A DNA stretch of 64,000 bases from IMG/VR virus record IMGVR_UViG_3300035006_000011, positions 2,208-66,207 of that record; one strand, given 5' to 3'. Source of the DNA: a virus. The notes beneath the pieces are model-generated. The model was not told where the DNA came from, did not search any database, and saw only the letters and a list, made by a program, of their open reading frames with translations. The position numbers and the translations under genes are program-made. Of the stretch, positions 5,250 to 49,726 are shown in pieces; positions within the stretch are counted from its first letter, which is position 1; every line of letters begins with the position of its first letter.

Positions 5250-6032
5250 ATGGTACGCCAAAAAGCGTCACAAGTCATCATGCACGAGATACATGGTGTG
5301 CAAATTGGGCAAAGAAAAATAGACGGTTACATTAATGCTACGGCAATGTGTCAAGCTGGCGGTAAAAAGCTAAATGATTATCTGCGGTTAAAATCCACAA
5401 AAGAGTATTTCCATGCACTTTCTGTGGATACGGGAATTCCCGTATCCGGTAGTAGCAAGGGTTCTGGACTTGTGATTTTAACTGGCGGTAGTTTTGACGA
5501 ACAAGATACTTGGGTTCATTTCGAGGTTGCGGTTGATTTGGGTAAATGGATATCGCCGCAATTTCGCATAGCTGTCAACCGTTGGGTTGTCCAGTGGATG
5601 GCAGGTTCTCAGGTAGAACAGCAGCAATCAAGCGCGATCGCCTTCCTCGTTTCATCTGTTACCCGCGAGTATCGACCTTGGGAGGTGCATTTTACCCCTG
5701 ACTGGATACGAGAAGCTGAACGGTTAACTGGATGGTCTTGGTCTTGGGGTTGCATGGGAGGATTTATTAATAAGTCAGTCTACAATGTGTTGCCAATTGA
5801 GATGCAAGCCAGACTAGATGAAGTCAACCCACCTATTAAAGGTAAGCGAGCAAGAAAGAAGTTTCAGCACGTTACTACCACTGTTGATGAGCAAGTTATC
5901 AAACAATTAATTGCTGAAACATTGGGGATGATGCGCGGTTCTTCTTCCGAGCAAAGCTATTGGCGATCGCACTGTAATGCATATGGTAATGGCGTGCAAT
6001 TGACTTTAGTCCTTGGGGGTTGTGATGAATAG
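5250..6032 (+). CDS. KilA-N + P63C-like DNA-binding protein
   Basis: DGYINATAMCQAGGKKLNDYLRLKST and GTW/HFEVAVDLGKW-type KilA-N motifs; C-terminal RPWEVHF...LDEVNP...KKFQH P63C-like. Confidence 0.85.
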   Translation: MVRQKASQVIMHEIHGVQIGQRKIDGYINATAMCQAGGKKLNDYLRLKSTKEYFHALSVDTGIPVSGSSKGSGLVILTGGSFDEQDTWVHFEVAVDLGKWISPQFRIAVNRWVVQWMAGSQVEQQQSSAIAFLVSSVTREYRPWEVHFTPDWIREAERLTGWSWSWGCMGGFINKSVYNVLPIEMQARLDEVNPPIKGKRARKKFQHVTTTVDEQVIKQLIAETLGMMRGSSSEQSYWRSHCNAYGNGVQLTLVLGGCDE

Positions 6033-6210
6033 ACCTAGAACCCAAGCGCATATTGATGCTGACAACCGATACAAACAAACAGTAAAGCGTGTGCAGTTAT
6101 CGTTTAAAGAGGATTCAGAATTACTTACCTACTTGCGATCGCAAGTAACAACCGACGCGGAAATACCAGCGCTAATCAAACAGATAATCGAAGCCCATAG
6201 GAAAGCATAA
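6025..6210 (+). CDS. Small RHH-like DNA-binding protein
   Basis: KRVQLSF beta strand plus two helices; overlaps upstream stop. Confidence 0.65.
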   Translation: MNRPRTQAHIDADNRYKQTVKRVQLSFKEDSELLTYLRSQVTTDAEIPALIKQIIEAHRKA

Positions 6211-6285
6211 TAAAAAGCGGGAGTACAAATCCCGCTTAACTAGTCAAAAGTAGAGAAAAATGAAAAAGTTAGTTGTTGCTACATT
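6134..6285. repeat. 152-bp perfect direct repeat, copy 1
   Basis: Identical to 7286-7437; begins at T-GCGATCGC (HIP1). Confidence 0.95.
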
Positions 6286-6321
6286 CGCAGTATACCAGCT
6301 TAAAAATATTTTGTGCAGCTA

Positions 6322-6350
6322 TTGACACAATGTGTTGATGACGATACTAT
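6322..6350 (+). promoter_or_regulatory. sigma70-type promoter of KilA-N cassette 2
   Basis: TTGACA-17-TACTAT, same layout as 5147-5175. Confidence 0.75.
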
Positions 6351-6425
6351 AAATTTAAGCGGCTAAGAGAAGTTTCTGACGCTCCCTCTTAGCCGCACCA
6401 CAAAGTCTATTAAGGAATTTGCTTA

Positions 6426-7169
6426 ATGAATATAATACCAAGAAATTGGAATGGCCGCACGATCCGCCAACGCGAGGATGGATATTGGTCTGCTACCGAT
6501 ATGTGTCAGGCTTGCGGAAAGCTTTGGGGTGATTGGAGTAGATTAAGTTCTACAAAAGAATATTTGAAAGTCTTGCAAAACAAGCATTATGCTGATTCCC
6601 ATAATGGTCAACTAATTGATTCTAGTGTTGGTGGCACTCCAGAAACAACAGGTACTTGGGTTTATCGTAAAGTAGCTTTACGTCTTGCTCAGTGGTTGTC
6701 TCCTGAGTTTGCAGTGCAAGTTGACGAATGGGTGGAAGAACTACTGACCACAGGGAAGGTTGAGTTAACCCCGCCAAAAACCCAAGCGGAGATGCTTTTG
6801 ATCTACGCACAGCAATTAGTCGATCTGGAGCGTAGTCAAAAGGCGCTAGAGCAAGAGCAGGAACGGTTAAATCAAAACCAAAAGCAATTGAATCAAAAGC
6901 AGTCGGAACTGACCGACCGCGTAGAACAAGTCGAACACGAGCAAGACAGATTTAACGCACCATGTGGGCACAAATACACGGTTCTTGGTTACTCGAAAAA
7001 GTTGGGGTTGGAAATATCGCTAAAAGAGTCGAGCAATAAAGGGAAGAAAGCAGCTTGTTTGTGTCGCCAAATGGGGATTGAAATTGAACAAGTTGATGAC
7101 CCGCGTTTTGGGATGGTTGGGTTGTACCCTCAGTCAATACTTGCTCAAGTTTTTGGCGAGGGGCTGTAA
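6426..7169 (+). CDS. KilA-N protein with coiled coil and antirepressor-type C-terminus
   Basis: IRQREDGYWSATDMCQACGK...GTWVYRKVALRLAQWLSPEFAVQV; C-terminal DPRFGMVGLYP. Confidence 0.85.
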   Translation: MNIIPRNWNGRTIRQREDGYWSATDMCQACGKLWGDWSRLSSTKEYLKVLQNKHYADSHNGQLIDSSVGGTPETTGTWVYRKVALRLAQWLSPEFAVQVDEWVEELLTTGKVELTPPKTQAEMLLIYAQQLVDLERSQKALEQEQERLNQNQKQLNQKQSELTDRVEQVEHEQDRFNAPCGHKYTVLGYSKKLGLEISLKESSNKGKKAACLCRQMGIEIEQVDDPRFGMVGLYPQSILAQVFGEGL

Positions 7170-7170
7170 G

Positions 7171-7362
7171 ATGCCTGCTAAAAGAAAACGCACTCAAGCC
7201 AACATCGATGGCAATCGCCGATACCAACAAACGGTTAAGCGGGTAATAGTGACATTTAAACGAGATTCGGAATTGCTTGATTGGCTGCGATCGCAAGTAA
7301 CAACCGACGCGGAAATACCAGCGCTAATCAAACAGATAATCGAAGCCCATAGGAAAGCATAA
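7171..7362 (+). CDS. Small RHH-like protein, paralogue of 6025..6210
   Basis: Identical C-terminal LRSQVTTDAEIPALIKQIIEAHRKA. Confidence 0.65.
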   Translation: MPAKRKRTQANIDGNRRYQQTVKRVIVTFKRDSELLDWLRSQVTTDAEIPALIKQIIEAHRKA

Positions 7363-7437
7363 TAAAAAGCGGGAGTACAAATCCCGCTTAACTAGTCAAA
7401 AGTAGAGAAAAATGAAAAAGTTAGTTGTTGCTACATT
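7286..7437. repeat. 152-bp perfect direct repeat, copy 2
   Basis: Identical to 6134-6285; includes terminator AAGCGGGA...TCCCGCTT and start of the 7412 gene. Confidence 0.95.
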
Positions 7438-8750: not shown

Positions 8751-9548
8751 ATGTTAAGTTTAATTGAAGTCGAAAACCAAATCAAGAGCGAAATTACAGT
8801 TAATGCCGATGGTACGGGGAAAGCTACGGTTAGAGGAACTGCAAAGATTGTAGGGGTATCCCAATCTGCAATATCTCAGTCATTGTCAAGTGATAAGCTG
8901 GGAGTATCGGGATTGTCTGTATATCTTGTCGCTAAAGGGTTTGAGATTGATAAGCTATCTTTGTTCTTGGCAAGCGGAATTCCAGATTTAGCGGTTGCCG
9001 CGATCGCATCCTACTACGCAATGCACGCTGGCAGATATTGTACCGAGATTGCAAAGATGGCTTGCGAAGTGTTTCAAGCGATCGGAGTCAGGACTTGGAT
9101 GCAAAAGATTGTAGGTTGGGAAGTAGCGGCTATTACAACACCAAACATCGAAGCTGACGCGGTAATGTTGTTGGAAGGGATGACGGTTTTAGCCAAAGGC
9201 ATTAAAAAAGCAACTTCGGATATTCGTAACGACATTGCATCAAGCAATGTAATCGTTGTTAGTGAGGTTCGTGAAGTCGCTACCAATTCCGAAGAGAGAA
9301 TCAGTGCAAAAGTTGATGCGGTGCAAGCCGAACTACTTAATATTCGTCAACTAGTCGAAAAACCAACAATCGTTGAACAAGTAAAAGCCCCACGTCGCAA
9401 GTCGCAAGACCAAAACATTAATATCCACGTTCCAAACGAGTCCCGGTACTTAGAATTAATTGCAATTGCCGAAAGTTCTGGAATGTCGCGCTCTCAATTC
9501 TTTTACGAAATCATCGAAAAAGCAATGGAGGTCTGTGTCAATGGCTAG
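8751..9548 (+). CDS. Antirepressor-like protein: N-terminal HTH, C-terminal RHH-like module
   Basis: TVRGTAKIVGVSQSAIS HTH; C-terminal SGMSRSQFFYEII; TTGCAA-17-TATATT promoter and leader hairpin upstream. Confidence 0.7.
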   Translation: MLSLIEVENQIKSEITVNADGTGKATVRGTAKIVGVSQSAISQSLSSDKLGVSGLSVYLVAKGFEIDKLSLFLASGIPDLAVAAIASYYAMHAGRYCTEIAKMACEVFQAIGVRTWMQKIVGWEVAAITTPNIEADAVMLLEGMTVLAKGIKKATSDIRNDIASSNVIVVSEVREVATNSEERISAKVDAVQAELLNIRQLVEKPTIVEQVKAPRRKSQDQNINIHVPNESRYLELIAIAESSGMSRSQFFYEIIEKAMEVCVNG

Positions 9549-9693: not shown

Positions 9694-9698
9694 AACGA

Positions 9699-11206: not shown

Positions 11207-11268
11207 AGAAAAAACGATCGCGTGTTAGGCGATCGGCGCGTCTAGCTGTGAAGAATGAACCTATGAAT

Positions 11269-12127: not shown

Positions 12128-12926
12128 CTAGAAGTCAAATAGTTTTTGCTGAAACTGTTCGCCAACAAGTCGAGCAAACAAATCTTTAAATTCTTGTTCA
12201 GAAGGGCAGGCATTGACAATCATCAGTACCTTGTCAAAGTGCTGTTTGTGCTTTTCAGTGGCGTTTTCTTCTAGCCATTGGTGGATGGTTTGCTTTCTAT
12301 GTCCGTTGCTTTGGACAGGATTGTTCTTGTCTAGCTTTGCTCGTTCGTTTGCATCTAAAGTGTGATAAATGAACGACCACATCCAGTTGGCTAACTTAGG
12401 GTGGTTGCGTCCCACTTTTGAGAAAAGATGCCACCTTGTCCATATTTTTGTCGCCAAACAACGGATGAGACTTGCGAGGTTTGTCCATGATGCGGTTATC
12501 GTCTTCGCGTCGTTGCTCAATTGTGCGGCAAGTACCGTAAACTTGGTCAAAGCGATCGCGTAAGGAGTCTTTGCCCAAAGCATCAAGAATGATTTCAGCT
12601 TTCACATTGTCGTTTTTATCCTCAAACCGCCATAAAGTAAAAGCATCGTCAAGCGACAATGTTTCGGCATAGCGGGACTGCTTTCCGTCGTAATATTTGA
12701 CCGCTAGGGAAACCCAGGTAAACCCTTTACTAGCAAGTCTTCGAGCTTTGTCAGGCGCGTGGTACGGCAACCTAGCTAAATAGTACTTAGCAACACTAAT
12801 TGCTTTCAATACCTGAGACTGGCTCATCCGATACTCGCTAGTCTCTGTTATCCGAATTGCATCAAATTCTAAATCGCCGATATATAGTTTAACTGCCTCG
12901 GCTGGGCTATAATCTTTTTTAGCCAT
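12128..12926 (-). pseudogene. Frameshifted P63C-family antirepressor-like gene
   Basis: ORFs 12396..12926 and 12128..12586 join by a +1 indel near 12415-12420 (CTC AAAA GTG versus CTT AAA GTC in paralogue at ~47295). Confidence 0.8.
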
Positions 12927-13306: not shown

Positions 13307-13446
13307 CGAATGAATTAGCCTTATGGCAAGCTGCATTAAATGCGATCGCTATTGCTAGAGCTTGTCAAAACATTTACACGCCAAGGACGGATAACCTTGA
13401 TGCTTGGCTAGCAGCAGAGGAGAGATTAAGTGCCGACAGCAGGTGA
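13303..13446 (+). CDS. Small hypothetical protein (47 aa, not in track)
   Basis: ATGA overlap with HTH stop; MTNELALWQAALNAIAIARACQNIYTPRTDNLDAWLAAEERLSADSR. Confidence 0.4.
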   Translation: MTNELALWQAALNAIAIARACQNIYTPRTDNLDAWLAAEERLSADSR

Positions 13447-14308
13447 AGCTTTCCGAATTGCCCAACGCTTTGACAAGTCTTTGGCGACTGCTGAAGACAA
13501 CACCATTGCCCGAATTAACCAAATTCTGCTCAATTCCTATCTCAAGTTAGAAAGGACAATGCGGTTAAAGTGGGACGAAATGGAGCGCGATCGCCCTTTT
13601 CTTCCAGCCCAACGGCAACTACTCGTTACTGAGCAGCTAGGCTATTTGTTGCAGTTGATTAACCCACAGCAACAGTCCGCAATTGAAGCGATGTTTGGAG
13701 AGTTGTTAGCCTTTGCGTCAAACCACGGAGTTAACCTTGCTGATGCTTTATTGGGCGATGCCGCTATGTTTTCGGCTGTACCAGTGGAGGCGATCGCTTA
13801 CTCAGCCACAGAATCCTATAATCGACTCCTCCGACATGGGGATGATTTTGCCTCTAAAGCTAGCATTGCAATTGGTGAGGGATTGGCTCAGGGATGGGGA
13901 GCGCAGAAAATAGCAGGAATATTGAAAGAGCAATTAGGAGTTACAAGGTGGAGGGCAGAAGCGATCGCCCGTACCGAATCAATCAAAGCATACAGTAACG
14001 CCAGTCAGCAAAAATATAATGATGCAGGTGTTGAGGAAGTGGTATGGGTTGCTGTTAGGGAGGGGGTCTGCAAATTTTGTACTTGGCGTAATGGCAAGGC
14101 TTTTAAATTAGGTTCCATCATCCACCCTGGTCACGTAAATTGCAGGTGCTGCCTGATTTGCAGGGTAGGAGATATTGCAGATAATGATTTTTGGCTAAAT
14201 TATTCAGATCAATTGACAGGCGATCCGGGACTAATGCCATTTGAAAAAGCTGCGGGAATGGCGATCCCGCCTAAACCGACATGGATACCAAAAAGAAAAG
14301 ACGGATAG
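13430..14308 (+). CDS. Minor head protein (SPP1 gp7 / Mu F-like)
   Basis: RAEAIARTES ... CKFCTWRNGK ... HPGHVNCRC signature. Confidence 0.9.
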   Translation: MPTAGEAFRIAQRFDKSLATAEDNTIARINQILLNSYLKLERTMRLKWDEMERDRPFLPAQRQLLVTEQLGYLLQLINPQQQSAIEAMFGELLAFASNHGVNLADALLGDAAMFSAVPVEAIAYSATESYNRLLRHGDDFASKASIAIGEGLAQGWGAQKIAGILKEQLGVTRWRAEAIARTESIKAYSNASQQKYNDAGVEEVVWVAVREGVCKFCTWRNGKAFKLGSIIHPGHVNCRCCLICRVGDIADNDFWLNYSDQLTGDPGLMPFEKAAGMAIPPKPTWIPKRKDG

Positions 14309-14352: not shown

Positions 14353-15105
14353 CTACTGAATACCGGGGATTGGAAGTTGTCCTATGCATTCAGGACGCGC
14401 TACCCGCGTGTTTTGTCGCTTTTTCTGCTGGTGAAATCGGAAATATTGCTCGGTTTTAACTCGGATTACAGCAGGTAATTTGGTAATATCTGTGCCACGA
14501 CGCGATCGCAACGACATTACCAAGATATTGAACGTATCAATGCTTAACCGCATCTTCCCGTCCACTAGTTCAAAATCAACCGATTCAACAAATGCGACTT
14601 GCACTGCATCTTTAAGTTGGTGCTTATGGACAATACCCGATACTTGATGCAACTCTTCTAATGTTTTCGGGAAAGCAATTTGACTTTCTGTTTCGGTTGA
14701 TTTTGATTCAAGTTGAGCAATGCGTGCTTTGAGTGTTTCAACTTCTGGGTTCGGATCGGAGAATAGCGATCGCTCCAAGTTGACGCGGTATTGCTTCTCT
14801 ATTTGGATCAAGTAATCAAGGTACTCTGCCCCTGCGACAGTGTTAGCTCGTGCTAACGCAAACTTGTAACTATCGACTGTTAAGTAAATCTTATTGAAAT
14901 CCTCCGAATGATTATAAAGCAGCGCCAATTGGCGCAAGCCTTGCTCTACAACAGGCTTGAGTCCTGAGCGTTTAAGTAAGTATCTTTTTGCGTCTGATCT
15001 TCTGCTATAGCCAAAGCTTTCCCAAACGGCATCAAAGTCAATCGGGAATTGTTCCCCGTCGCGCTCTGCTTCGAGCGCATCTAAAATGTATGTTTCTGTT
15101 AGCAT
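14353..15105 (-). CDS. AntA/AntB-like antirepressor
   Basis: FPIDFDAVWESFGYSRRSDAKR; IYLTVDSYK; ends QLPIPGIQ. Confidence 0.75.
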   Translation of the reverse strand: MLTETYILDALEAERDGEQFPIDFDAVWESFGYSRRSDAKRYLLKRSGLKPVVEQGLRQLALLYNHSEDFNKIYLTVDSYKFALARANTVAGAEYLDYLIQIEKQYRVNLERSLFSDPNPEVETLKARIAQLESKSTETESQIAFPKTLEELHQVSGIVHKHQLKDAVQVAFVESVDFELVDGKMRLSIDTFNILVMSLRSRRGTDITKLPAVIRVKTEQYFRFHQQKKRQNTRVARPECIGQLPIPGIQ

Positions 15106-20559: not shown

Positions 20560-21342
20560 ATGGACAGTAAAGATTCTAGCATGACCAAAGCGCATAACTA
20601 TGCGTCGGCATTGAAAACCATCAACATTGCGTTGCCTGTTAATTTGGTCGATGAATTGTTGGGGCTAATTGACCAGTTTGTTAAGAGCAAAAACATTAGA
20701 CGCAACGAAAAAGGCGATTACTCAATTTATGATTTTCTTGCCTACGTCTGCAAGAAAATCAACCCTAGTATTCCTTGGAAACGTTTTGGAAAGCAAAACC
20801 CAGCAGTCCTAACAAAATGTTCGTTCTGCCAATTCCCTGGAGAAAGACAGTCTAGAACCCCCGTTTGCTCAAAGTTTCACCTAATAGTAATTGCGTATTT
20901 AATGCCTGGTGAATATGGGGATAGGTTGCGTAAAGCGAGTGCTAATTTGATATGCGAGGTGCTAGAACAGTACCCGATCGCCAAACTAGAATCTATCCTC
21001 GCACTCGATACCGTCCCTGGCGACAAACCAGGATATCCATACAGTGACATCGACTTGCACCAATTCACCGGCTACGCATCTCTGGACTACACCCGAAAGG
21101 TAATTCGCAAGGACTACATCAAAGGGGCTGACTATATTAAGTTACAAGGTCGGTACTATCTCACGGCAGAAGCCACAGCTATCACGTGTCGAGTGGCAAG
21201 ACCAGAGAACGGATCGACGATTCCTGACGAAGTTTGGTACTACCCAGTCACACGAGAGAAAGCACAGCAGCAACAGCAAAACTCAAAGATTAACCGTAGG
21301 CGATCGCAGCAGGACGATTCAAATCAATTAAGCTTGTTCTAA
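20560..21342 (+). CDS. Bro-N-like + AntA-like DNA-binding protein
   Basis: YSIYDFL...FPGERQSRTPV...LMPG (Bro-N-like); C-terminal KDYIKGADY; ends NQLSLF. Confidence 0.7.
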   Translation: MDSKDSSMTKAHNYASALKTINIALPVNLVDELLGLIDQFVKSKNIRRNEKGDYSIYDFLAYVCKKINPSIPWKRFGKQNPAVLTKCSFCQFPGERQSRTPVCSKFHLIVIAYLMPGEYGDRLRKASANLICEVLEQYPIAKLESILALDTVPGDKPGYPYSDIDLHQFTGYASLDYTRKVIRKDYIKGADYIKLQGRYYLTAEATAITCRVARPENGSTIPDEVWYYPVTREKAQQQQQNSKINRRRSQQDDSNQLSLF

Positions 21343-21364: not shown

Positions 21365-21389
21365 GACGGATAAAGTTAATTTATCCGTC
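21365..21389. terminator. GACGGATA-N9-TATCCGTC palindrome (copy 3)
   Basis: Provides the KKDG-TAA end of the portal gene; convergent genes. Confidence 0.8.
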
Positions 21390-32044: not shown

Positions 32045-32210
32045 TGTGCTAAATCTCCTAAACAGATTTTGTACTGCGCTTGGGTGGTGACGCACCGCGA
32101 AGCGCTTTGTTATTTCCTACTCCTTTAATATATAGAACCCATCGGGTGCTGTCAATGCTTTTTTGGGAATTTTTTTCTTTATTTGCACAACAACTTTTTT
32201 CTCGACACAA

Positions 32211-36725: not shown

Positions 36726-36777
36726 TGAAATAACAAAAAGACGGATAGAAAGCTCTATCCGTCTTTTTGTTATTTCA
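36726..36777. terminator. GACGGATA-N8-TATCCGTC palindrome with 24-bp perfect arms (copy 7)
   Basis: TGAAATAACAAAAAGACGGATAGA-AAGC-TCTATCCGTCTTTTTGTTATTTCA; convergent genes. Confidence 0.9.
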
Positions 36778-39547
36778 GACTAAACTCTATCTTTTTGCGA
36801 TACGCCCATTCTTTTGGGTATTGCAACTTCTCAGCTACATACAGCCAATCAGCAACACTCGGCTCAAAAGTAAGGGTTTCCGTCAATCGGTAAAAAGTCC
36901 ATCCTGTTTTGTAACCTTTTTCAGCTTGGATCGCCAACAACTTATCTACTTCTTCGTTAAATCCAATAGTAGGAAAACCAAGTGATGGCGGTGGCGCAAT
37001 GGTGGCTAATTTTTCTTTGAAATTATTAGTAGCTACATCAAAACTCATTTTGCACTCTCGTGCAAGATAACGAATATCTCCGTGAGTGAATCTTTTCGCA
37101 TCCTCCCCGTAGGTTTCGATGATGTACATCGCAATCCACTTTGACTTATACCCTTTCTGTTTAGCGATCGCAGCAACATTATCAATAATGTCCTTATGTT
37201 TAGGCGTTAGGGTTAAGTCTAGTTCCTCGATTTCGCCACGTTCTTGAGCGATGGCAATTCCTTCACCTGGTTCCACTCCTTCCCCTCCTTCCCCTTGCTC
37301 CCATTCAAAAGAGTGAAGACAAGCCGGACAAGTGGCTCTAAGAATATTTTTAACTTGACCCAAAGCATCAACTGTTTGACGATAAGGTTTTTGCTCGTGC
37401 GATCTTGGCACAAAGACGTGGTGACATTCAAGACAGCTTTGGGTAAATCGTGCGGGTTTCAAAGACACTGGCTCCAAAGTCCACTCTCTATCTTCATCAG
37501 GCAACCCATGCTTTAACCAATTATCAGAATGATCGATGATGACACAATGCTCTTTACCTGGCGATGGACGCAATCCACGTCCACAATTGCCTACAATGGC
37601 AACCTTGCCATTGCGTCTAGTTACCAAGGTTCCGTATCTGTTTTGTAAACACCATACCCACTCATCGGAGGAAAACTCGCAATTTTTCAGTATCGGGCGA
37701 TCGCCACACGCAACGCCACCGATATAACGGGTTTGCGTATCCTTTATATGCAATAAATACAGGAGTTTATCCCCATTCTGATCGCTTTCTGCAATATTGC
37801 ACTTAAACCCACGAGTCACGCAAAGCCTCTGTAGGTTATTGGCAAATAACTTGTTGCCAGTGCTGATGTGATAGCTACGTCTCGTCCAGCTTTGTCCCTC
37901 CATTTTAGTTCCGTCGCCATAATGCAATTCTTCTAGCAATACAGCTAGTTGATCTCTAGATATCGCATCATATGCTCGACATAGATTTTTGTTCAAGTAT
38001 TTTGCAAGGCTTCCCCACCCTCGCAAATGAGTATCAGTTGCTCTGGGTTTTCCTTTTGAAACGTAAAATTGATAGCGCTCATATTCTCCAAAATTTGTTG
38101 CACACTGCCTAATATCAACCCCAAATTTAAAGCCACATCCTTGTAAACAGTCAAAAATGCGCTGCAACCAAGGCTGATGACCGGATTGATAGATATTTAC
38201 TTGTCCACTTTTTAGATTTATACTTCCGTCAGTCAAAAACCATCCAAGGAAACGGATTTCATCGTCAGCCAAAGGCAACCCAGATGTCTTCAAGAATCCA
38301 GAGATAGGAATTTCGTACCCGTCATATCGAGATGCTAAATCTTTCGCTGGCGACAATTGCCAGCTTTTCTCACTTCCCCTTGATCGCCACACCATGTTAT
38401 GACCATCAGTGACTCGGATATCCAGGGATGGGCTAGACACAGAAACCATTTTTTCCCCTGGTGTAAGTGGACGGTGGATATATTCTTGTGCGTAAGTCCA
38501 CTTGATTTCATCAGTATTGCGATCATAAGCTGCTATTTTGTGCCATTGCTTAATTTCGCTATATTTCCTAAACCCATGATGGGTCAATACCTCGGTTTCC
38601 AGATCCAAGCACATTTGCAAATGAAGAATTAAGCTCATTGTTGGACGTGCAACCTGGATTGACTCAATTTGAGGAATGTCTGTTCCTTCTGTTGCTACAT
38701 TAACGTTTGACAGCACCATTGTTTCTTTGCTGCGAAACCGATTAAAAATGCGATCGCGTTCTAAATCGTCAGTCTCTCCATCAACGTGTTCAGCGGATAT
38801 GCCTGCTGCCTTGAATGCCTGGACTATTTCCTTGGAATGCTCAATTGAAACTGCAAACACAAGGTTAGATTTCCCCTCGGCATATTTTTGATAAGTAGTC
38901 ACCAAATCTCCAGTAATTTTTCTAGCAGCATCTTCTAACTGACCTTGGTTATAGTCTCCACCAACTTTTCTTATTCCTTTAGTGTCGATCTTGCTGCTAC
39001 TACGAAAAACTCGAAACTTAGAAAGGTATCCATCTTCTATTAACTGGCCTGGTGATACGCCTACCACCAAGCTGTCAAACAGGTATTTAAATCCTTGCCC
39101 GTCAGATCGACACGGGGTGGCTGTTACGCCCAGAATCTTTGAGTCCGCATATGCAGCCATGATATCCATATAAGTTTTACTTATAGAATGGTGCGCTTCA
39201 TCGACTATTATCAGTCCTGCAGCCGGAAAACGTTTACGTCTGATTAACGACTGCACTGAAGCGACTTGAATGGGAAATATTTCTGAGACTGGGTAGCCTG
39301 CTTTAATAACACCACACGGCAATCCAGTTATTGCTTCTAATTTGTCTTTGGCTTGAATAATTAATTCTTTTCTGTGGGCTAGAATCAACACTGATTCACC
39401 GACATCAAGGAACTGGCGGGCTAGTTCACTAAAGCAAACCGTTTTACCAGCCCCTGTTGGTAGCTGTGCTAACACTCGGCGATCGCCAGCTTTCCATCTT
39501 GCATTAATATTGTCAATCAATTGCTTTTGGTATGGTCTAAGTTCCAT
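36770..39547 (-). CDS. SF2 (DEAD/DEAH-like) helicase containing an intein
   Basis: LPTGAGKT, VDEAHH, TATP, motif VI QM|CGRGLR split by intein; C-terminal Cys ribbon and GYKTGW repeats. Confidence 0.93.
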   Translation of the reverse strand: MELRPYQKQLIDNINARWKAGDRRVLAQLPTGAGKTVCFSELARQFLDVGESVLILAHRKELIIQAKDKLEAITGLPCGVIKAGYPVSEIFPIQVASVQSLIRRKRFPAAGLIIVDEAHHSISKTYMDIMAAYADSKILGVTATPCRSDGQGFKYLFDSLVVGVSPGQLIEDGYLSKFRVFRSSSKIDTKGIRKVGGDYNQGQLEDAARKITGDLVTTYQKYAEGKSNLVFAVSIEHSKEIVQAFKAAGISAEHVDGETDDLERDRIFNRFRSKETMVLSNVNVATEGTDIPQIESIQVARPTMSLILHLQMCLDLETEVLTHHGFRKYSEIKQWHKIAAYDRNTDEIKWTYAQEYIHRPLTPGEKMVSVSSPSLDIRVTDGHNMVWRSRGSEKSWQLSPAKDLASRYDGYEIPISGFLKTSGLPLADDEIRFLGWFLTDGSINLKSGQVNIYQSGHQPWLQRIFDCLQGCGFKFGVDIRQCATNFGEYERYQFYVSKGKPRATDTHLRGWGSLAKYLNKNLCRAYDAISRDQLAVLLEELHYGDGTKMEGQSWTRRSYHISTGNKLFANNLQRLCVTRGFKCNIAESDQNGDKLLYLLHIKDTQTRYIGGVACGDRPILKNCEFSSDEWVWCLQNRYGTLVTRRNGKVAIVGNCGRGLRPSPGKEHCVIIDHSDNWLKHGLPDEDREWTLEPVSLKPARFTQSCLECHHVFVPRSHEQKPYRQTVDALGQVKNILRATCPACLHSFEWEQGEGGEGVEPGEGIAIAQERGEIEELDLTLTPKHKDIIDNVAAIAKQKGYKSKWIAMYIIETYGEDAKRFTHGDIRYLARECKMSFDVATNNFKEKLATIAPPPSLGFPTIGFNEEVDKLLAIQAEKGYKTGWTFYRLTETLTFEPSVADWLYVAEKLQYPKEWAYRKKIEFSLK
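37586..38611 (-). mobile_element. 342-aa intein with LAGLIDADG homing endonuclease
   Basis: Starts CLDLETEVLT, ends KVAIVGN, +1 residue Cys; FLGWFLTDGS and LLEELHYGDGT motifs. Confidence 0.92.
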
Positions 39548-40010: not shown

Positions 40011-40787
40011 TTATTCAACGCCTAGCGCTTTGCAATTAACTTCCAAGAAAAACTTAGAGCGAGACATTCCAGAGCGTTCAGCTAACGCTAAAAATTCTTG
40101 GTACTGCTCCTCTGTTTCGCAATGAAAAGCTATCGTGCGAGTGTTACGGTTGCTGGATTTGCACAAAACGATAGTTTCTACTTGATCCACAGATAAAGAC
40201 TCAACACTATTTTCTAAGCGTTGGTGGCTTTCAATTAATCGATCTAATTTACTGGCAATCGCTTTATTTTCTTCGCTGTGATTATGAGCGGCATAGCGGA
40301 CTTCTGAAACTACCACTACTTCACCGGAAGCAACTGTTCGCTTGATATCATCCGTTGATGCTTTGATGCCTTTAGCTAGCCCACCCATCATAGCCGCCAA
40401 GTTCGCAACTACATCGAGATCGGTGACATTTGAAGCTGAATCAATTACCGCGATCGCTTTCTTCGCAATCTCTTCGCACTTAAGGAAATACTGGCGTACT
40501 TGCTTTCCTTTTTCGGTTTGTGCAAGCATCCCCATTTCTTTCAAGCAATTAGCGGAAAGATAAATTCGCTCAACGGCAGCGCCACCGCCCTGTAAGCGTT
40601 CTACCATCTCCTCAATGATGAGGAAATCGGTTTTATTTACAAAGTTTTTAGTCAAAGCACGCTTTGCGTTATCTTTTCTTGAATACCCCAACCACTCAAC
40701 CGCAAAATCAAAATCAACGGGGAAACTTTCTTGCGACGCATACAAGCTTTGCGCCAACTTAAATGAAAATGGCTGTATATTTGTCAT
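40011..40787 (-). CDS. AntA-like N-terminus + RHH-like C-terminus
   Basis: FPVDFDFAVEWLGYSRKDNAKR; SGMSRSKFF; TTGACA-17-TAATAT promoter upstream. Confidence 0.78.
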   Translation of the reverse strand: MTNIQPFSFKLAQSLYASQESFPVDFDFAVEWLGYSRKDNAKRALTKNFVNKTDFLIIEEMVERLQGGGAAVERIYLSANCLKEMGMLAQTEKGKQVRQYFLKCEEIAKKAIAVIDSASNVTDLDVVANLAAMMGGLAKGIKASTDDIKRTVASGEVVVVSEVRYAAHNHSEENKAIASKLDRLIESHQRLENSVESLSVDQVETIVLCKSSNRNTRTIAFHCETEEQYQEFLALAERSGMSRSKFFLEVNCKALGVE

Positions 40788-40930: not shown

Positions 40931-41458
40931 ATGCAAAATGAAGTTACACAATACCTCCCGTCTTGCTATCGACAGGGAGATGAGCAAGAAGAGATAGCGA
41001 TCGCGCTAACGCAAGGCATTGCGGAGAAATATGTTGAGTTGAGCGATCGCTTACTTACTTACCGTCAAGATTATCTAGACCCTGAAACCTGCCGTGTTGA
41101 ATGGTTGGACGAGATAGCAAGGTGGTCTGGGTGGGGTGATTTATGGGATAGTACTTGGACTGTCGAAGTAAAGCGATCGCTATTAAAGGAAACTGAATTT
41201 ATTTGGAGCAATCGCGGAAACAGAGAGGTTTTGACCAAATTGTTTAGCATTTTCAGCCTAACCGTTACCCTGGTTCCACAGACGGGATTTATTCTAAATG
41301 TGACAACCTTTCCTGGTGGGCTAGGGATTGACCCATTCTCCTATGTTGTTCAACTTCCAAGCACTTATGTTGAGGGTTCTCCCGAATTGCGAACAGTTAA
41401 ACGGTTGCTAAAAGATTTTTTACCTTGTTGGATTGAATTTTCTTATTCTTATGTCTAA
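40931..41458 (+). CDS. Baseplate wedge / tail protein I (P2 gpI-like)
   Basis: YLDPETCRVEWLDEIARWSG, LLKDFLPCW. Confidence 0.85.
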   Translation: MQNEVTQYLPSCYRQGDEQEEIAIALTQGIAEKYVELSDRLLTYRQDYLDPETCRVEWLDEIARWSGWGDLWDSTWTVEVKRSLLKETEFIWSNRGNREVLTKLFSIFSLTVTLVPQTGFILNVTTFPGGLGIDPFSYVVQLPSTYVEGSPELRTVKRLLKDFLPCWIEFSYSYV

Positions 41459-43598: not shown

Positions 43599-44285
43599 AT
43601 GCTAACAGAAAAATTCATCTTGGACGCACTCGAAGCAGAGCGTAACGGACAGCAATTTCCTATTGACTTTGACGATATTTGGGAAAATGCAGGATATAGC
43701 CGTAAAGATTCTGGAATACGGGCATTACTCAAAGGTCGCCTAATCCCAGAAATTGATTTCCACATCATTGTGGGAAATAAAGTATTAGGGATTTCCAATA
43801 AGCATAAATTATCTGTCGATGCATCTAAATCATTTTGTTTAGCTGCAAACACTGACAAAGGGGAAGAAGCAAGACGCTATTTCATCGAAGTAGAAAAACG
43901 TTACCGCCAACATCTAGAGCGATCGCTATCCCTGTCTTTTGACACAAAATCAGAAGAGCCAGCTTTCCCCTATTCTTCCACTCAGATTCACGAATGGGTA
44001 GACTATTGCAACCGCACTTATACGCGGTCTGTTATCAAAAACGATTACGAAGAAGGGATTGACTATATTTGGGTAGAAAGGGAAATGTATCTTAACGCCG
44101 ATGCCGCAACAATTTTGTTAAATGCTGCCCGTCCGCGTCCAGGGGTAATAATCCCATCGGAATTGAAGAAACGCCCATTCCCCTGGGATAAGCTGCAACA
44201 ATTCCAAGACAACAAGATTAATCGGAGGCGATCGCAGTCACATTTACAGTCGGAAGCGCTAGGGCAGTTGAGTTTGTTTGATTAA
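43599..44285 (+). CDS. AntA/AntB-like antirepressor
   Basis: FPIDFDDIWENAGYSRKD; KNDYEEGIDY; ends GQLSLFD. Confidence 0.78.
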   Translation: MLTEKFILDALEAERNGQQFPIDFDDIWENAGYSRKDSGIRALLKGRLIPEIDFHIIVGNKVLGISNKHKLSVDASKSFCLAANTDKGEEARRYFIEVEKRYRQHLERSLSLSFDTKSEEPAFPYSSTQIHEWVDYCNRTYTRSVIKNDYEEGIDYIWVEREMYLNADAATILLNAARPRPGVIIPSELKKRPFPWDKLQQFQDNKINRRRSQSHLQSEALGQLSLFD

Positions 44286-46654
44286 CCAGGTGGTTGCCCA
44301 GTCAAGCACCATTGAATCCACCCTGTTGGAGCTGCGAAAAGTCCATTTTTGTCGGCTCCTTTTTTACGCATTTGAAAATGAAGATGTGCTGCACTTCCAA
44401 CACCTGTGCTACCCGAATAAGCGATTACTTGCCCTGCATTGTACTTTCCACTCCCTCCACTTGTCAGGTGCAAATATTCAAAAGTATATCCACCATAATC
44501 AAACCTCACCATATTTCCCGCGCTACCTTGGTTTGGCAAGTAAGTCACGTCAATTGATTCACCTGATTTGCAAATTGCGTACAGCTTAGTATTTGAACCG
44601 CATCCAATATCAATGCCTCGATGGTACGTACTCGCACCGGGTATTCCGGTATTACGTGGCCCAAAACCAGAAGTTACCGGATAGCCTGCAATGACATCTC
44701 CCTTAGCTGCTGCTTTTTTCCATTTCGCGTCCCATTTATCGAAATCAGGACTATTGATCGCAGCCGTCCCACTAACAGCACCCCCTTGAGTAGGCGTTGA
44801 ATCTTGCTTGACCACCACTGCAACTGGTAAGTAGATTGAAATAGTAGATGCGATCGCCCCTTGCGCCCAAGAATGTTTAACCTGAGATATTCGGTAACCT
44901 CGGTCAATTGCTTCACCGTAGCCAGTAGATGGCTTAACAATTTCTCCAGGTTGCCAGGTTAAAACATCAGGCTGCAACACCGTCAGAATGTTTAATGTTG
45001 ATTCAAAACCTTTTCCTACTCCTTTTTTTTCATCGGCTGCTGATTTAAGGTCAAGTATCCCAGCTTTGTTTAAGTTAATCGTCGGTTGTAGCTTGTTTAA
45101 TTCCGTGGCTGCTGTTGGTAAAGAGTTAGTAGTGGTTGGTGGTGTAATGGAGGTAGTTGGTGTAACTACTTTTTCGGCTTGGACTGGGGTAATGTTTCGG
45201 TCGTTGCTTGCAGTATCACCCCAAGTTGAACCAGGGAGTAAAACATCTTTTTTGGCAAACCTAACTTTGTCTGAAGTTTTCAACGCTTCTAACTTAATTT
45301 TCTCTGTATCCCCACGAACAAATAACCCGATTGTTTTAGCTGCTTTAACCAAGGCTTGATAGTTAGTTTCATTTCTCTTCACTACAGTCATTACTTTATC
45401 AGCATCAATATCGTCCGCGATCGCCACTTCTGCCCCAACACCTGCGGCAATTTGATTTGCAAGTTGACGAATAGTAGTGTTGCGATAAACTGCAAATGAT
45501 TTGAGACTTTTAGCAATGATTGCCCTTACTTGTTTGCCCTGGATTGTGGTTGTGTGAGGTATGCGATCGCTGCCTCGAAGATCGGTGAGGAGGAATTCGT
45601 AGACAGTCATTTCGGTGTCGTTAAACCCCATTTCAACAAAAACGCGAACGCCTTGAGTCACATCTATTGCCGCGCTATCCGTCTTAGTGTCTTTTCCCAG
45701 AGTTTTGAGTGTATCAGAGGCAGATGGTAAAGCGGTTGTACTAGTGGTTGCTGGAGTAGTAGGGGCAGTCGTAGTAGTTTTAGATGAAACTGATTTGAGC
45801 CGATTGAAGTTAGCTAAAAACGTCCCCTTTTTTCCTCCAGGTGTCCCTTGCCCGTACCTTGCTGGTTCTAATGATGCCCATTCCCATGATGCCCCGTTGC
45901 CCTTTCGCCCATCTCCGTTTAGCGCTGCTTCTATATCCCCCCTCTCCACCTCTTCCAGTATTCCTCGATATATCATTCTTCCAACTGCTAAAATCTCTTG
46001 CGATATCGGCTTAAAATCTTTCAATCCTAAACCTTTTGACCCATATGCGGTATCGTCATCCCAAACAAAATCCATTGTTTGGTATCTTCCCGTCGCCGAA
46101 CTAGTAAAACCGCTAGCCGATCGCCTTTTGCGTGGATGTGTCGTTAATGTCTTGGGGTCAAACGTCTCAGTCCCCCCAGTGTCCCCAAATAAGTAACCGT
46201 ACCCACCTTTTGCAGCTGCATTATCGCCTAGTTCCGCGATCGCAACCGCATCTAAAAAAGCCCTCACGTTTGAATTAGACAACGCTTGATAAGCCTTTCT
46301 CCCAACAGGCGTCAACCCAGATAAATCCGAAACGCCATACTTTTGTTCTAGTTGTTTCAAATAGCCGTTTGGGTCGCCAGTCAAAGATGGAGTGCCAGTG
46401 CCAGTAGCGCTTGTCTCTTCCTTCTTCTCTTCTCCTAGCAATCCCTTCGGTACTATTATTCCTCCAACTCTTTGAAATTCAGTTAATAGTAAATTTAATA
46501 ATTTAAGGTCAGGGTCAAACACAGAAACCGTGCAACTACTTGCCCTTTCTTGTTCCCCCAGAGTCACTTCTGCTGATTGCAAAAAACCATCATCGTTTTG
46601 ATAAATAAAACGATTTGCAATGTTGACTCGGATTTGGGGCGATCGCAGTCGCAT
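44282..46654 (-). CDS. Baseplate hub (gpD-like) with inserted muramidase and C-terminal M23 peptidase
   Basis: RAFLDAVAIAE...ATGRYQ (lambda-R/GH104-like); YHRGIDIG and HLHFQ (M23). Confidence 0.85.
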   Translation of the reverse strand: MRLRSPQIRVNIANRFIYQNDDGFLQSAEVTLGEQERASSCTVSVFDPDLKLLNLLLTEFQRVGGIIVPKGLLGEEKKEETSATGTGTPSLTGDPNGYLKQLEQKYGVSDLSGLTPVGRKAYQALSNSNVRAFLDAVAIAELGDNAAAKGGYGYLFGDTGGTETFDPKTLTTHPRKRRSASGFTSSATGRYQTMDFVWDDDTAYGSKGLGLKDFKPISQEILAVGRMIYRGILEEVERGDIEAALNGDGRKGNGASWEWASLEPARYGQGTPGGKKGTFLANFNRLKSVSSKTTTTAPTTPATTSTTALPSASDTLKTLGKDTKTDSAAIDVTQGVRVFVEMGFNDTEMTVYEFLLTDLRGSDRIPHTTTIQGKQVRAIIAKSLKSFAVYRNTTIRQLANQIAAGVGAEVAIADDIDADKVMTVVKRNETNYQALVKAAKTIGLFVRGDTEKIKLEALKTSDKVRFAKKDVLLPGSTWGDTASNDRNITPVQAEKVVTPTTSITPPTTTNSLPTAATELNKLQPTINLNKAGILDLKSAADEKKGVGKGFESTLNILTVLQPDVLTWQPGEIVKPSTGYGEAIDRGYRISQVKHSWAQGAIASTISIYLPVAVVVKQDSTPTQGGAVSGTAAINSPDFDKWDAKWKKAAAKGDVIAGYPVTSGFGPRNTGIPGASTYHRGIDIGCGSNTKLYAICKSGESIDVTYLPNQGSAGNMVRFDYGGYTFEYLHLTSGGSGKYNAGQVIAYSGSTGVGSAAHLHFQMRKKGADKNGLFAAPTGWIQWCLTGQPPG

Positions 46655-46791: not shown

Positions 46792-47587
46792 ATGGCTAAG
46801 AAAGATTATACCGCAGCCGAAGCAGTTAAATTGTATATTGGCAACTTAGAATTTGATGCAATTCGGATAATTGAGACTGGCGAATATCGGATGAGTCAAT
46901 CTCAGATGTTGCGAGCGGTCAACCGGGTTTCTTGATATTTTGGCGAGTTCGAGTCTAAGACTCCCGACAAGGCTCAACGCCTTAAGGATAAGGGGTTTTC
47001 GTGGTGTCGAGTCAGGGTTAAATATCACGACGGACAACGATTCCGCTACGCTGAAACCCTGTCGCTTAAAGATGTTCGTATTTTTTGGAATTTCGAGAAT
47101 AAAAACGGCAACGAACACGCCGAGACTTTAGTCGATGTGCTAACAGATGACTCCCTACGCGATCGCTTTGACCAAGTACGGTACTCGGCGCACAATTGAA
47201 GAAAGACGAATAGACGACATCCGCGTTATGGATACACCTCGCAAATTTCACCCGTTATTTGGTGACGAAAACATGGATAAAATTGCATCCTTTCTTAAAG
47301 TCGGGCGCAACCATCCTAAGTTAGCAAATTGGATGTGGGAGTTCGTCTATCACACCCTGAATGTAGAGAGGAACGGGCGAAGCTGGACAATCTCAACCCC
47401 GTCCAACCGAACGGGCACAGGAAACAAACTATTCACCAATGGTTGGAAGAGAACGCAACCGAGAAGCACAAACAACATTTTGATAAAGTCTTGATGGTGG
47501 TTTGCCGCACCGTCTGAGCAAGAATTTGGCGACTTATTTGCTCGCCTGTGTGGCGGTAAGTTCCAATGTCGATTGTTTAACTTCTAA
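46792..47587 (+). pseudogene. Disrupted P63C-family gene (paralogue of 12128..12926)
   Basis: In-frame TGA at 46933 plus frameshifts near 47175, 47370 and 47510; fragments align to paralogue and end QCRLFNF. Confidence 0.85.
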
Positions 47588-47616
47588 ACCAATATCTGCT
47601 GACACAAACAAAAAAA

Positions 47617-47643
47617 GACGGATACCTATCATGGTTGTCCGTC
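47617..47643. terminator. GACGGATA-N11-TGTCCGTC palindrome (copy 8)
   Basis: A- and T-tracts on both sides; convergent genes. Confidence 0.8.
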
Positions 47644-47662
47644 TTTTTTTGTTTCCCTTGCT

Positions 47663-48382
47663 TTACCGTTGCGCCATTTCAGGTTGCCAGTGGTTTAACC
47701 TGTCTCGAAAATCAAGTAGTTGGGCATCACTCATAAGCGATCGCGCTTTGACGTTATACCAGGTCATCGTGAGGTGTCTTGCTTGGTCAGATTGAATTCC
47801 TTTACGCTTCATTAACGAGCTGGTTTCGTCTATCAACATTTCTCGATCAATGCGATTAGGTGGAAGGTTTGCAGAATTAAAGTGAGGAGTGAGTTCACGG
47901 TTTTGTGGTTGCGTTTCCTCTGGTTGCCCAAGTCTTGCCTGTACGGTAGCGATGATGCCAGCCCAGTTAGCATCCTTATTCCAGTCTGCCTTGATTCGTT
48001 GTTTAGTGGTTGCATCGTAAACCCTGGCAAACACTACGGTTTCTTCTCCCGGTGCGACAGCTAAAATTAATGGCTTTGACACATCAAACTGGGCGATCGC
48101 AAGTAAAAAGGTCTTAGCAAAATTAGTCTCTATTCCTGTGCGAACAATGTAAAGTTCATCGGATTGAATAACAATATCAAGCTTTACGTTTGTTTTACCC
48201 TTGTACTCTTTATTAGTTAGCCGTAGTTCTTGCAGCTTCCCGCACAGTCCTCGTTCAGCGACAGGAATTGTTTGTTGGGTGTCTATATTAAACTTGTACC
48301 AGAGTGACGAAGCGCTGTCCTCGCCAGCGCGAACATATAAATAGATAGGTTCTGGAGGATTGCATAAACCAAAATTAATCAT
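47663..48382 (-). CDS. Conserved hypothetical protein (possible ssDNA-binding/recombination)
   Basis: 239 aa in replication region; beta-rich N-domain, helical C-domain. Confidence 0.55.
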   Translation of the reverse strand: MINFGLCNPPEPIYLYVRAGEDSASSLWYKFNIDTQQTIPVAERGLCGKLQELRLTNKEYKGKTNVKLDIVIQSDELYIVRTGIETNFAKTFLLAIAQFDVSKPLILAVAPGEETVVFARVYDATTKQRIKADWNKDANWAGIIATVQARLGQPEETQPQNRELTPHFNSANLPPNRIDREMLIDETSSLMKRKGIQSDQARHLTMTWYNVKARSLMSDAQLLDFRDRLNHWQPEMAQR

Positions 48383-48566
48383 TGTTCAACTCCTTTAATA
48401 AAATATCTGCGGCTGAAATTGCATCACGGGCGATCGCGTGAAAATCTTCTGTGGTGTACTCTGGATTTGCCAGCAACGCTGCCATGAATTGTGCTGCAAA
48501 TAGCTGTGCGTTGTTGCTTATTTTGTTCTTCAGAGCTTTCCATTTTTTCTCCTGATTTTTTGGCAC
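48375..48566 (-). CDS. Small hypothetical protein
   Basis: AAQFMAALLANP...AADILLKEL typical of small phage proteins. Confidence 0.55.
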   Translation of the reverse strand: MPKNQEKKWKALKNKISNNAQLFAAQFMAALLANPEYTTEDFHAIARDAISAADILLKELNND

Positions 48567-49003
48567 TCGACTTGGGTGAAAGCTGCTTGAACTAGAACTG
48601 ATAGCTGCTGTTGACCAGAAACAACACCTAGGTATAAGTCTATGTTTAGCGATCGCACTCTTGATTCAACCTTGTCTGCATCAAAGTAATAGCAGTGCGG
48701 CAAAATCATCACAAACTCATCACCACCACGGCGATAAATGCAGTCAGTCATTCGGACGCATGATTTCAAGCCCATTACTACTTCAATTAATAGGCGATCG
48801 CCTTTATCATGACCCTCCCTCACATTAGTCATGCCCAGTCCGGGGACATCAACAGCAATCACTGTTACTTCATCTTCACTATGCAACTGGCTAATCAATG
48901 CGCTTTGGCTTAATGCTCTAGTCAGGCGATCGTATTTGACCTGTTGTTCCAACTCTGCTACTCGGGTGAGCAACAAAGCAATTAATGCTTGCTCTGTTGT
49001 CAT
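48530..49003 (-). CDS. Stand-alone GGDEF-domain protein
   Basis: YDRLT, DxxxxxxxNxxxGHDKGDRLL, RMTD I-site five residues before GGDEF. Confidence 0.85.
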   Translation of the reverse strand: MTTEQALIALLLTRVAELEQQVKYDRLTRALSQSALISQLHSEDEVTVIAVDVPGLGMTNVREGHDKGDRLLIEVVMGLKSCVRMTDCIYRRGGDEFVMILPHCYYFDADKVESRVRSLNIDLYLGVVSGQQQLSVLVQAAFTQVECQKIRRKNGKL

Positions 49004-49006
49004 GAC

Positions 49007-49726
49007 TTATGATCCGAGGTTTAAGGTGAGTTGGGTATGCCCGTTCTTGAAAATAAAACAAGCTTTCGGGAATAAAGCATTTTTGGGAGTTTTTAGAGCT
49101 TTGTTGACACGGCAATAATAATCCCAATCTAGGGTCACTGTTTGTCCAACTTGCTCTACATCTATGCCTCGAATGGTGCGGCTAGCAGCAATAAAAGAAT
49201 AGAAAATCGGGTTACATAACCACAACGTTGAACCATTCCACTGATAGTCTTTTCCTTCATCTAGATAATCCAGTAGTCGTCGCATTGTGGCGTAGCGGCT
49301 ACGATGCCCGGTTATTTGAACCGCTGCATCAAAACAGTAATCAAAGCGAGTTGGGTCTAGTTGTGGGTTAACTTGAGGATTAAGACTGCGCTCTAAGCTA
49401 GCGCGGATTTGTTGTTTTGCTGCCTCAAAGTCAGCTATCAAATCGGCTTTTTTTTCCGCGACTTTCCCAATGTTTCGAGATAAAGCAAGTAATAAATTGC
49501 ATTGCGGCTCAGTCAACAATGCATATTTCTCCGGCATCCCTACCTTTCCCGATAGTGAGGTTTCAAACCTCACTATTCCAAACCTGCTTTCTATAAGGGG
49601 TTGGTATTTCTTAAGCGTATCGCTGAACCAAAACCGATGTTCTACCTCGATAATATCCCTACAATAAACTCGGCTGTCAATTAAAGCAACGTCGCTTTCT
49701 ACTTGAACATACTGTAATATTGTCAT
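49007..49726 (-). CDS. Rha-family regulatory protein with AntA-like second domain
   Basis: IDSRVYCRDII, YALLTEPQCNLL...KKADLIADFEAAK; AGGAG RBS before MTILQ; ends QLTLNLGS. Confidence 0.75.
   Translation of the reverse strand: MTILQYVQVESDVALIDSRVYCRDIIEVEHRFWFSDTLKKYQPLIESRFGIVRFETSLSGKVGMPEKYALLTEPQCNLLLALSRNIGKVAEKKADLIADFEAAKQQIRASLERSLNPQVNPQLDPTRFDYCFDAAVQITGHRSRYATMRRLLDYLDEGKDYQWNGSTLWLCNPIFYSFIAASRTIRGIDVEQVGQTVTLDWDYYCRVNKALKTPKNALFPKACFIFKNGHTQLTLNLGS

Follow-up and report, generated by a model that had tools for sequence, protein, structure and literature searches.

The window, a 64,000-nucleotide stretch of viral DNA (positions 2,208 to 66,207 of IMG/VR record IMGVR_UViG_3300035006_000011), resembles a prophage and comes from a HIP1-rich cyanobacterium. 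It corresponds to G000:C22:25556-89555 in a genome of 7.9 Mb and 82 contigs. Several antirepressor-like proteins encoded in the window end in a short hydrophobic peptide, and these tails resemble, far beyond chance, the motif through which bacterial proteins bind the sliding clamp DnaN (the beta clamp). The tail is very likely a functional linear motif. Judging from its sequence, DnaN is probably its partner. Tentatively, we favor the interpretation that the tail could be a beta-clamp docking peptide, one that would tether modular phage DNA-binding regulators to the host clamp.

Clamp-like tails on two unrelated modules

The tail-bearing genes are listed below, with each tail given up to the stop codon. 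Group A denotes genes whose products share one C-terminal module; the others are of the P63C type. Proteins are named by the low coordinate of their genes.

5250-6032, + strand: KilA-N plus P63C gene, 260 amino acids; tail GVQLTLVLGGCDE (...QLTLVLGGCDE), motif of the QLxLxL type at 5997-6014
12128-12926, - strand: P63C-type gene, frameshifted (open reading frames 12396-12926 and 12128-12586); ends QQKLFDF, motif at 12137-12151
14353-15105, - strand: group A gene, 250 amino acids; ends GQLPIPGIQ, motif at 14362-14379
20560-21342, + strand: group A gene, 260 amino acids; ends NQLSLF, motif at 21325-21339
24434-25168, + strand: P63C-like gene, 244 amino acids, a weak member; tail QNDLGI at 25148-25165, in the same alignment column
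43599-44285, + strand: group A gene, 228 amino acids; ends GQLSLFD, motif at 44265-44279
46792-47587, + strand: degraded paralogue of the 12926-12128 gene with several frame breaks; QCRLFNF at 47564-47584
49007-49813, - strand: group A gene with a weak Rha-like N-terminal domain; ends QLTLNLGS, motif of the QLxLxL type at 49016-49033

A sequence-only reading of this DNA had listed seven such C-terminal peptides, all of which are found in the sequence. The positions it cited are the low coordinates of the genes and not those of the motifs: on the + strand they are gene starts, and 46792 is the start of the degraded gene. The fit that it claimed to the clamp consensus, QL[SD]LF or QLxLxL, is borne out, with QLSLF occurring twice, QLTLNL and QLTLVL conforming to QLxLxL, and QQKLF, QCRLF, and QLPIPG matching more loosely.

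The same reading proposed that many families converge on the tail. Instead, the tails reduce to two C-terminal modules joined to different N-terminal DNA-binding domains. Specifically, BLAST and alignment show that the 20560, 43599, 14353, and 49007 proteins share one homologous, unannotated C-terminal module of ~115 amino acids, and their tails (QLSLF, QLSLF, QLPIPG, and QLTLNL) fall in identical alignment columns. The 5250 gene, the 12926-12128 gene, its remnant at 46792-47587, and the 24434 gene have the P63C domain in common, the last being tied to P63C by tblastn and alignment only. Seven independent convergences are ruled out because the tails align within two homologous families. Distant homology between the group A module and P63C is likewise ruled out: hhalign, run with the tails removed, returns a probability of 0.6%. 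The presence of the tail on two unrelated modules represents genuine convergence on a far smaller scale, or else a case of tail transfer.

The carriers are modular proteins that combine a head of the AntA, Rha, Bro-N, or KilA-N type with either the winged-helix-like module or P63C. Among 48 group A members, Pfam identifies six Rha heads and one each of Bro-N and AntA; the heads of the window's own group A members are AntA-like, Rha-like, or without annotation, and Pfam AntA matches no window protein. Similarly, in close relatives of the 5250 protein, either KilA-N or Rha fronts the same P63C-plus-tail unit. Both modules are sporadic among 401 sampled genomes of the phylum (group A module in 2, P63C in 9), a distribution that fits phage carriage. 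PADLOC and NCBIfam scans return no match for any tail-bearing protein, Pfam scans of all of them detect no Mor-type family at E<=0.01, and a related-locus search of viral contigs with the 43599 protein and P0047 yielded nothing useful.

Within group A, the 43599 protein consists of an AntA-like winged-helix N-terminal domain, a second winged-helix-like module, the sequence KINRRRS, a linker, and the tail. PHROG anti-repressor profiles match its residues 46-115 (2e-7 to 8e-4), and its Atlas feature score to AntA clusters is 0.93. Its paralogue, the 14353 protein, is 34% identical, and the QLxIP/QLNLPVPGI tail variant that the latter carries recurs in representatives P0045, P0026, P0048, and P0069. 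In the 20560 protein, which has no match in Pfam and PHROG scans, an unannotated N-terminal part precedes the shared module, KINRRRS, and a canonical QLSLF at the exact C-terminus. The true start of the 49007 gene likely lies at ~49726 (M30), in agreement with the 239-amino-acid P0021.

Within the P63C set, the 5250 protein scores above the Pfam gathering cut-offs for both of its domains: 71 bits for KilA-N (PF04383; 8.6e-20, cut-off 23.8) and 35.4 bits for P63C (PF10546; 1.7e-8, cut-off 26.1). The reading frame of the 12926-12128 gene is interrupted near 12400, where an A4 run contains a single surplus base (12396-12420, - strand; …TTTCTCAAAAGTGGGACG…), a position at which the degraded copy at 46792-47587 stays in frame. 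The break could be a sequencing error, the mark of a pseudogene, or a slippery site. Against the P63C model, the 12128 fragment scores 25.9 bits alone and 26.5 bits when joined with its neighbours in frame (cut-off 26.1), and the gene has an unbroken relative, P0106, of 291 amino acids and 77% identity, that ends QQRLLG. The QCRLFNF tail of the 46792-47587 remnant is followed by a terminator-like hairpin.

Conservation of the tail peptide

Strict matches to QL[SDT]LF within the last 10 residues occur in 3 of 6854 open reading frames of at least 120 amino acids in the 7.9-Mb genome, versus 0.19 expected from the internal frequency of the motif, and two of the three are in the window. The two QLSLF copies are spelled differently, CAA TTA AGC TTG TTC versus CAG TTG AGT TTG TTT. 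These synonymous differences at four of five codons argue for selection on the peptide and not for a DNA repeat at gene ends. A conserved DNA element at the ends of gene cassettes is therefore ruled out as the source of the shared tail, also by the differing downstream DNA.

The third strict match, …NYQQLTLFDFG, ends a 518-amino-acid TnpB/Cas12f-like protein (G000:C40:42875-44431, - strand; locus L021:176-1732). This protein has a PF07282 TNB domain (1.6e-6), and its sole paralogue, at 44% identity, lacks the tail.

Known clamp motifs include QMSLL in MutS, QLNLF in UmuC, QLxLxL in Pol IV, and QLxLP (QLSLPL) in Hda. Variants within group A repeat these motifs (QMSLL, QLNLF, QLxLxL, and QLxLP), which we count in favor of clamp docking. 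In a word-based search, the 43599 protein finds relatives at 33-74% identity with clamp-like tails (GQLSLFN, GQLSLFD, GQLELF, GQLSFL, NQLSLFDS, GQLSLF, NQLSLFNL, and RQLNLFV), preceded by linkers of varying length and sequence. A four-sequence profile of the module, used in an exhaustive HMMER search, yields 91 representatives that are mutually <50% identical. A clamp-like penta- or hexapeptide is present in the last 15 residues of 49 of the 91, versus 1.6% of 5323 genome open reading frames. At E<=1e-10, 33 of 47 representatives carry the motif in this interval, and most of the others have near variants (QLPIPG, QTKLF, QTTLL, QTCLDL, or QMTLFG plus 13 residues). When 37 representatives are anchored on a conserved N-x-R sequence, the tail has Q in 100%, L/M in 78%, S/N/T in 70%, L in 81%, and F/L in 68%. 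This consensus, Q-[LM]-[SNT]-L-[FL], follows a variable linker of 6-25 residues, and the exact pentapeptide forms the end in 14 of the 37. Thus, the motif is kept among distant homologues while the linker varies; lack of conservation, which would have spoken against docking, is not what we find.

The P63C tails are also conserved within cyanobacteria, although in more degenerate form, and there the clamp interpretation is plausible; it is not general for the domain. Homologues of the 5250 protein retain QLT[LF]x[LF] or QLNLMI. Eight P63C proteins of other cyanobacteria were compared, of which one lacks a tail; the ends seen are QLEINL, QLELEF plus 30 residues, QPELFD, QPNLFD, QTELDF, and ETLSLQF. 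In a 16-row alignment, Q is retained in 13 of 16 P63C tails. The P63C part of the 5250 protein has no tblastn match among GenBank phages, and we used a canonical cyanobacterial P63C protein as the query to reach the P63C genes of these phages. Degenerate tails in phages of other phyla include QLTMF (Erwinia), QFELL (SPN9CC), and QMTMY (SI8).

One alternative concerns the weak members alone: QLTLVL, QQKLFDF, QCRLFNF, QLPIPGIQ, and QNDLGI might be chance resemblances, ordinary hydrophobic domain ends with no docking role. The loose motif does occur in the last 15 residues of 1.6% of genome open reading frames, two of the weak-tail genes are broken, and the P63C linker is short. We nonetheless consider chance very improbable. 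Each weak tail shares an alignment column with the clear motifs of its family, Q-x-x-L is retained in both close and distant relatives of the weak members, and one of these tails, that of the 5250 protein, is modelled as unstructured.

A second alternative accepts a conserved linear motif and assigns it another purpose: binding to a different partner such as a repressor or RNA polymerase, service as a protease degron, or latching onto the protein's own winged-helix domains, perhaps as a bipartite signal to which N-x-R contributes. An N-x-R motif (KINRRRS, NSRVAKR, NTRNPQ, and others) lies 6-25 residues ahead of the tail in almost every group A member, and N208 and R210 of the 43599 protein (within residues 208-211, window 44220-44231) are invariant or nearly so in the 48-row alignment. 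To our knowledge, N-x-R belongs to no clamp motif, and this invariant pair upstream of the tail speaks for another partner, as does the acidic-hydrophobic character of P63C tails (ELDLEF, QLELEF), from which Q is missing in some phyla. By contrast, the family consensus equals the clamp consensus at each position, variants included, the same tail occurs on two unrelated modules, and we know of no other bacterial partner for a terminal Q-L-x-L-F peptide. A partner or purpose other than the clamp is, in our judgment, rather unlikely.

Structural context of the tails and the host clamp

AlphaFold2 models place both tails that we examined outside the folded domains. The model of the 43599 protein, built from a 48-row alignment, has a mean predicted local distance difference test score (pLDDT) of 86, with helix/hairpin domains at residues 1-114 and 121-206; its tail, residues 207-228 following KINRRRS, has a pLDDT of 50-64. 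In the 5250 protein, the P63C domain (141-247) is modelled confidently, and the tail (248-260), including QLTLVL, falls at pLDDT <50. The KilA-N part of this model is poor because the alignment contains no KilA-N relatives. Both modelled tails look like free ends, as expected of a docking peptide. A Foldseek search of the 43599 model against the PDB finds nothing at E<=0.001. In a VIA wide search, residues 3-107 match the DdrC N-domain (Z 6.7), and residues 118-208 match MerR, Xis, Par, and Mbp1 (Z ~4.5); we take these weak winged-helix matches just as an indication that the protein may be DNA-binding-like.

The genome contains a single dnaN, on contig C71, that encodes 386 amino acids and includes TDGHRLAV and C-terminal MP motifs, which we take to be those that line the peptide cleft in the E. 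coli clamp. No second clamp was found in the genome. Its sole family A polymerase lies on C64, no family B polymerase was found in the genome, and the element's contig carries no clamp and no family A or B polymerase. The element's replication genes are limited to a Prim-Pol and a helicase. With no clamp or A/B polymerase of its own, the element is likely copied by the host holoenzyme, and its DNA would carry host clamps. Host clamp partners sought for comparison were uninformative: no Y-family polymerase was found, and the MutS tail has no clear motif.

Probable clamp docking and its possible roles

We observe the motif, its conservation at the level of the peptide, its disordered context, the modularity of its carriers, and the lack of a phage clamp or polymerase. 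From these features, we infer clamp binding and a role downstream of it. The Q-[LM]-x-L-[FL] and QLxLxL tails would dock in the hydrophobic cleft of host DnaN. The host replisome, in copying the element's DNA, would leave host clamps on the element, and the tail could then concentrate site-specific binders on replicating or just-replicated DNA. The role that we prefer is regulatory: activation of adjacent structural-gene blocks, or antirepression, might in this manner be coupled to replication.

Several points weigh against this proposal. The coupling of regulation to replication is drawn by analogy with Mu C/Mor and the E. coli clamp and with T4 gp33/gp55 and gp45. In the window, QLPIPGIQ, QQKLF, QCRLF, and QNDLGI are off consensus, and two of the P63C copies are broken genes. 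The linker between the P63C domain and the tail is merely ~5-7 residues. Outside cyanobacteria, P63C tails are degenerate in some cases (ELDLEF in Streptococcus, ETLQLPF in Burkholderia, and FELELN in SEN34) and absent in others (BP-4795, Mx8 p63, and Lodos). Finally, the profile used to collect the group A representatives included two QL columns, which can bias weak matches, an effect that is negligible at E<=1e-10.

The evidence for clamp binding serves equally a different outcome, namely that the tails bind the clamp and the proteins block replication. Such proteins could act much as BstA does, excluding superinfecting phages or aborting their infection, or they could occupy the cleft of the host clamp and so shut down or perturb host replication and repair, as Mu C does when over-produced. 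Pointing this way, the N-terminal domain of the 5250 protein matches PHROG 6287, "BstA abortive infection system, replication inhibitor" (4.2e-9), and BstA localizes to sites of phage DNA replication (PMC8585504). Over-expression of Mu C is lethal via the clamp (PMC12867686). P63C genes adjoin a repressor gene in Javan515, Midgardsormr38, SPN9CC, and SI8, a typical place for exclusion genes, and several of the tail genes have promoter-like sites and hairpins of their own, as morons do. Against a blocking role, PADLOC recognizes none of the tail-bearing proteins, the likeness found between the 5250 protein and BstA is confined to the KilA-N domain, the clamp is unmentioned in the BstA paper (PMC8585504), and a dozen such genes in a single element is unusual for a defence gene. 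We regard replication blocking as unlikely and retain replication-coupled regulation as the preferred, if tentative, role.

In the four phages of other phyla just named, Javan515, Midgardsormr38, SPN9CC, and SI8 (records L026, L031, L032, and L033, respectively), the P63C gene lies directly beside a gene for a CI/LexA-type repressor. The spot next to the repressor gene is often home to prophage-expressed exclusion genes.

A broader generalization is possible but doubtful: the phage "antirepressor-like" proteins that join AntA, Rha, Bro-N, or KilA-N heads to the winged-helix module or to P63C, a large and modular class, may be clamp-tethered, with the host beta clamp serving as a general docking hub from which temperate phages would bring site-specific DNA binders to replicating DNA. 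Under such an arrangement, several factors of this cyanophage, one next to each block of structural genes, would work either as switches coupled to replication or as exclusion factors targeted to it. Genes of the Ant, KilA-N, Rha, Bro, and P63C types are among the commonest unexplained genes of phages and prophages, and a docking tail would supply a concrete, easily tested partner and, if the interpretation is correct, the first mechanistic handle on a very common phage gene family of unexplained function. Such a tail would further suggest that phage regulators and exclusion factors commonly target the replication clamp or use it as a landmark.

The surrounding region

With 134 copies of the HIP1 sequence (GCGATCGC), the window has a HIP1 density of 2.1 per kb versus 0.72 per kb genome-wide. 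Such a density in a phage region is unusual for horizontally moving DNA. The closest phage matches to the window are Nostoc, Anabaena, and Aphanizomenon phages. This similarity, together with the richness in HIP1, points to a filamentous-type cyanobacterium as the host. Other recognizable genes of the window are as follows.

153-1418: terminase
3909-5006: baseplate J
13430-14308, + strand: Mu F
21381-22913, - strand: portal
26410-27642: DUF2213
28267-29217: major capsid
36770-39547, - strand: ResIII/DEAD helicase
40931-41458: Tail_P2_I
44282-46654, - strand: M23 peptidase
58625-60889, - strand: C5 methylase
62901-63974, - strand: Prim-Pol

Between positions 3900 and 47000, structural genes are dispersed over both strands. 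For example, Mu F is on the + strand at 13430 versus portal on the - strand at 21381, and baseplate J at 3909 is far from Tail_P2_I at 40931. Approximately 12 antirepressor-like genes (KilA-N, AntA-like, Rha-like, ORF6N, and P63C types) lie between the structural blocks, on both strands, and one is present at most block junctions in this interval. This layout may reflect rearrangement or decay of the element, or else its construction from independently transcribed blocks.

Some antirepressor-like genes have no clamp-like tail: 8751-9548 (+), 40011-40787 (-), 31196-32095 (-), and 6426-7169. The first three have AntA-like or ORF6N heads followed by a coiled coil, and all end in a "GMSRSQFFYEI" segment. 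Their common end, "…SGMSRSQFFYEI(I/V)…A(L/M)E…", looks like a ribbon-helix-helix. Strong promoter-like sites (32155, 40902) lie upstream of two of the three. The 6426-7169 protein scores 79.5 bits for KilA-N, yet it has no clamp-like tail. Its gene is flanked by a perfect 152-bp direct repeat at 6134-6285 and 7286-7437, of verified identity, that begins at a HIP1 site. The repeat suggests a recent insertion or duplication of this KilA-N gene through recombination.

Comparison with known systems

Viral regulators, as Iyer, Koonin, and Aravind (cited in PMC8585504) reportedly described in 2002, shuffle Bro-N, KilA-N, Rha, AntA, and ORF6N heads with KilA-C, P63C, T5orf172, and similar modules. 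The proteins discussed here have the same N-terminal repertoire and undergo the same modular shuffling. In the description of those domain-shuffled regulators, we found neither the conserved clamp-like tail nor the group A module.

BstA is a prophage-encoded KilA-N abortive-infection protein that acts at phage replication sites, and no clamp link has been reported for it (Owen et al. 2021, PMC8585504). The 5250 protein is, like BstA, prophage-encoded and two-domain, with an N-terminal KilA-N (PHROG 6287 at 4.2e-9). The similarity found covers the KilA-N domain only. At the C-terminus, the proteins in the window have P63C or the unannotated module.

Proteins of other mobile elements, namely insertion sequence (IS) transposases, Tn7 TnsE, and RK2 TrfA, engage the host clamp via QL[SD]LF-type motifs (PMC3971601, PMC4549789, PMC8034659), with clamp binding by the IS transposases documented in PMC3971601 and PMC4549789. 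Those proteins have catalytic or origin-opening roles, whereas the proteins here hold DNA-binding-type domains only. What is new here is the appearance of what look like the clamp-docking motifs of mobile-element proteins on unrelated and very common phage families.

In phage T4, as outlined in PMC12867686, the C-terminal hydrophobic tails of gp33 and gp55 tether these transcription factors to the phage clamp, gp45, coupling late transcription to replication. T4 has its own clamp and sigma-like factors, whereas the present element encodes no clamp.

The closest parallel is to phage Mu, whose C and Mor proteins use terminal QHDLF and QPDLF peptides, a motif conserved across Mor/C, to bind the E. 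coli clamp (Ho & Harshey, PNAS 2026, PMC12867686). Clamp binding by Mu C and Mor is needed for late transcription, and over-production is lethal by interfering with Hda and the clamp (PMC12867686). Docking by the proteins of our window was first put forward as a role not recognized for them. That statement stands for the families themselves, since our literature search turned up no published link between the clamp and Ant, KilA-N, Rha, or P63C proteins; it does not stand for the principle, which is published for the unrelated Mor/MuC factors (PMC12867686). Like Mu C and Mor, the tail-bearing proteins are small putative DNA-binding regulators of a phage, with a near-consensus pentapeptide at the terminus, a family-wide motif, and a probable dependence of the phage on the host replisome, and the QPELFD and QPNLFD tails of cyanobacterial P63C proteins resemble the Mu motifs. 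Unlike Mu C and Mor, they belong to unrelated folds and families and occur in many copies per element versus two, and their putative clamp and transcription roles are read from sequence; the relation is one of functional analogy. If the interpretation is correct, the use of the host clamp established by Mu C and Mor would extend to unrelated protein families and to cyanobacteria.

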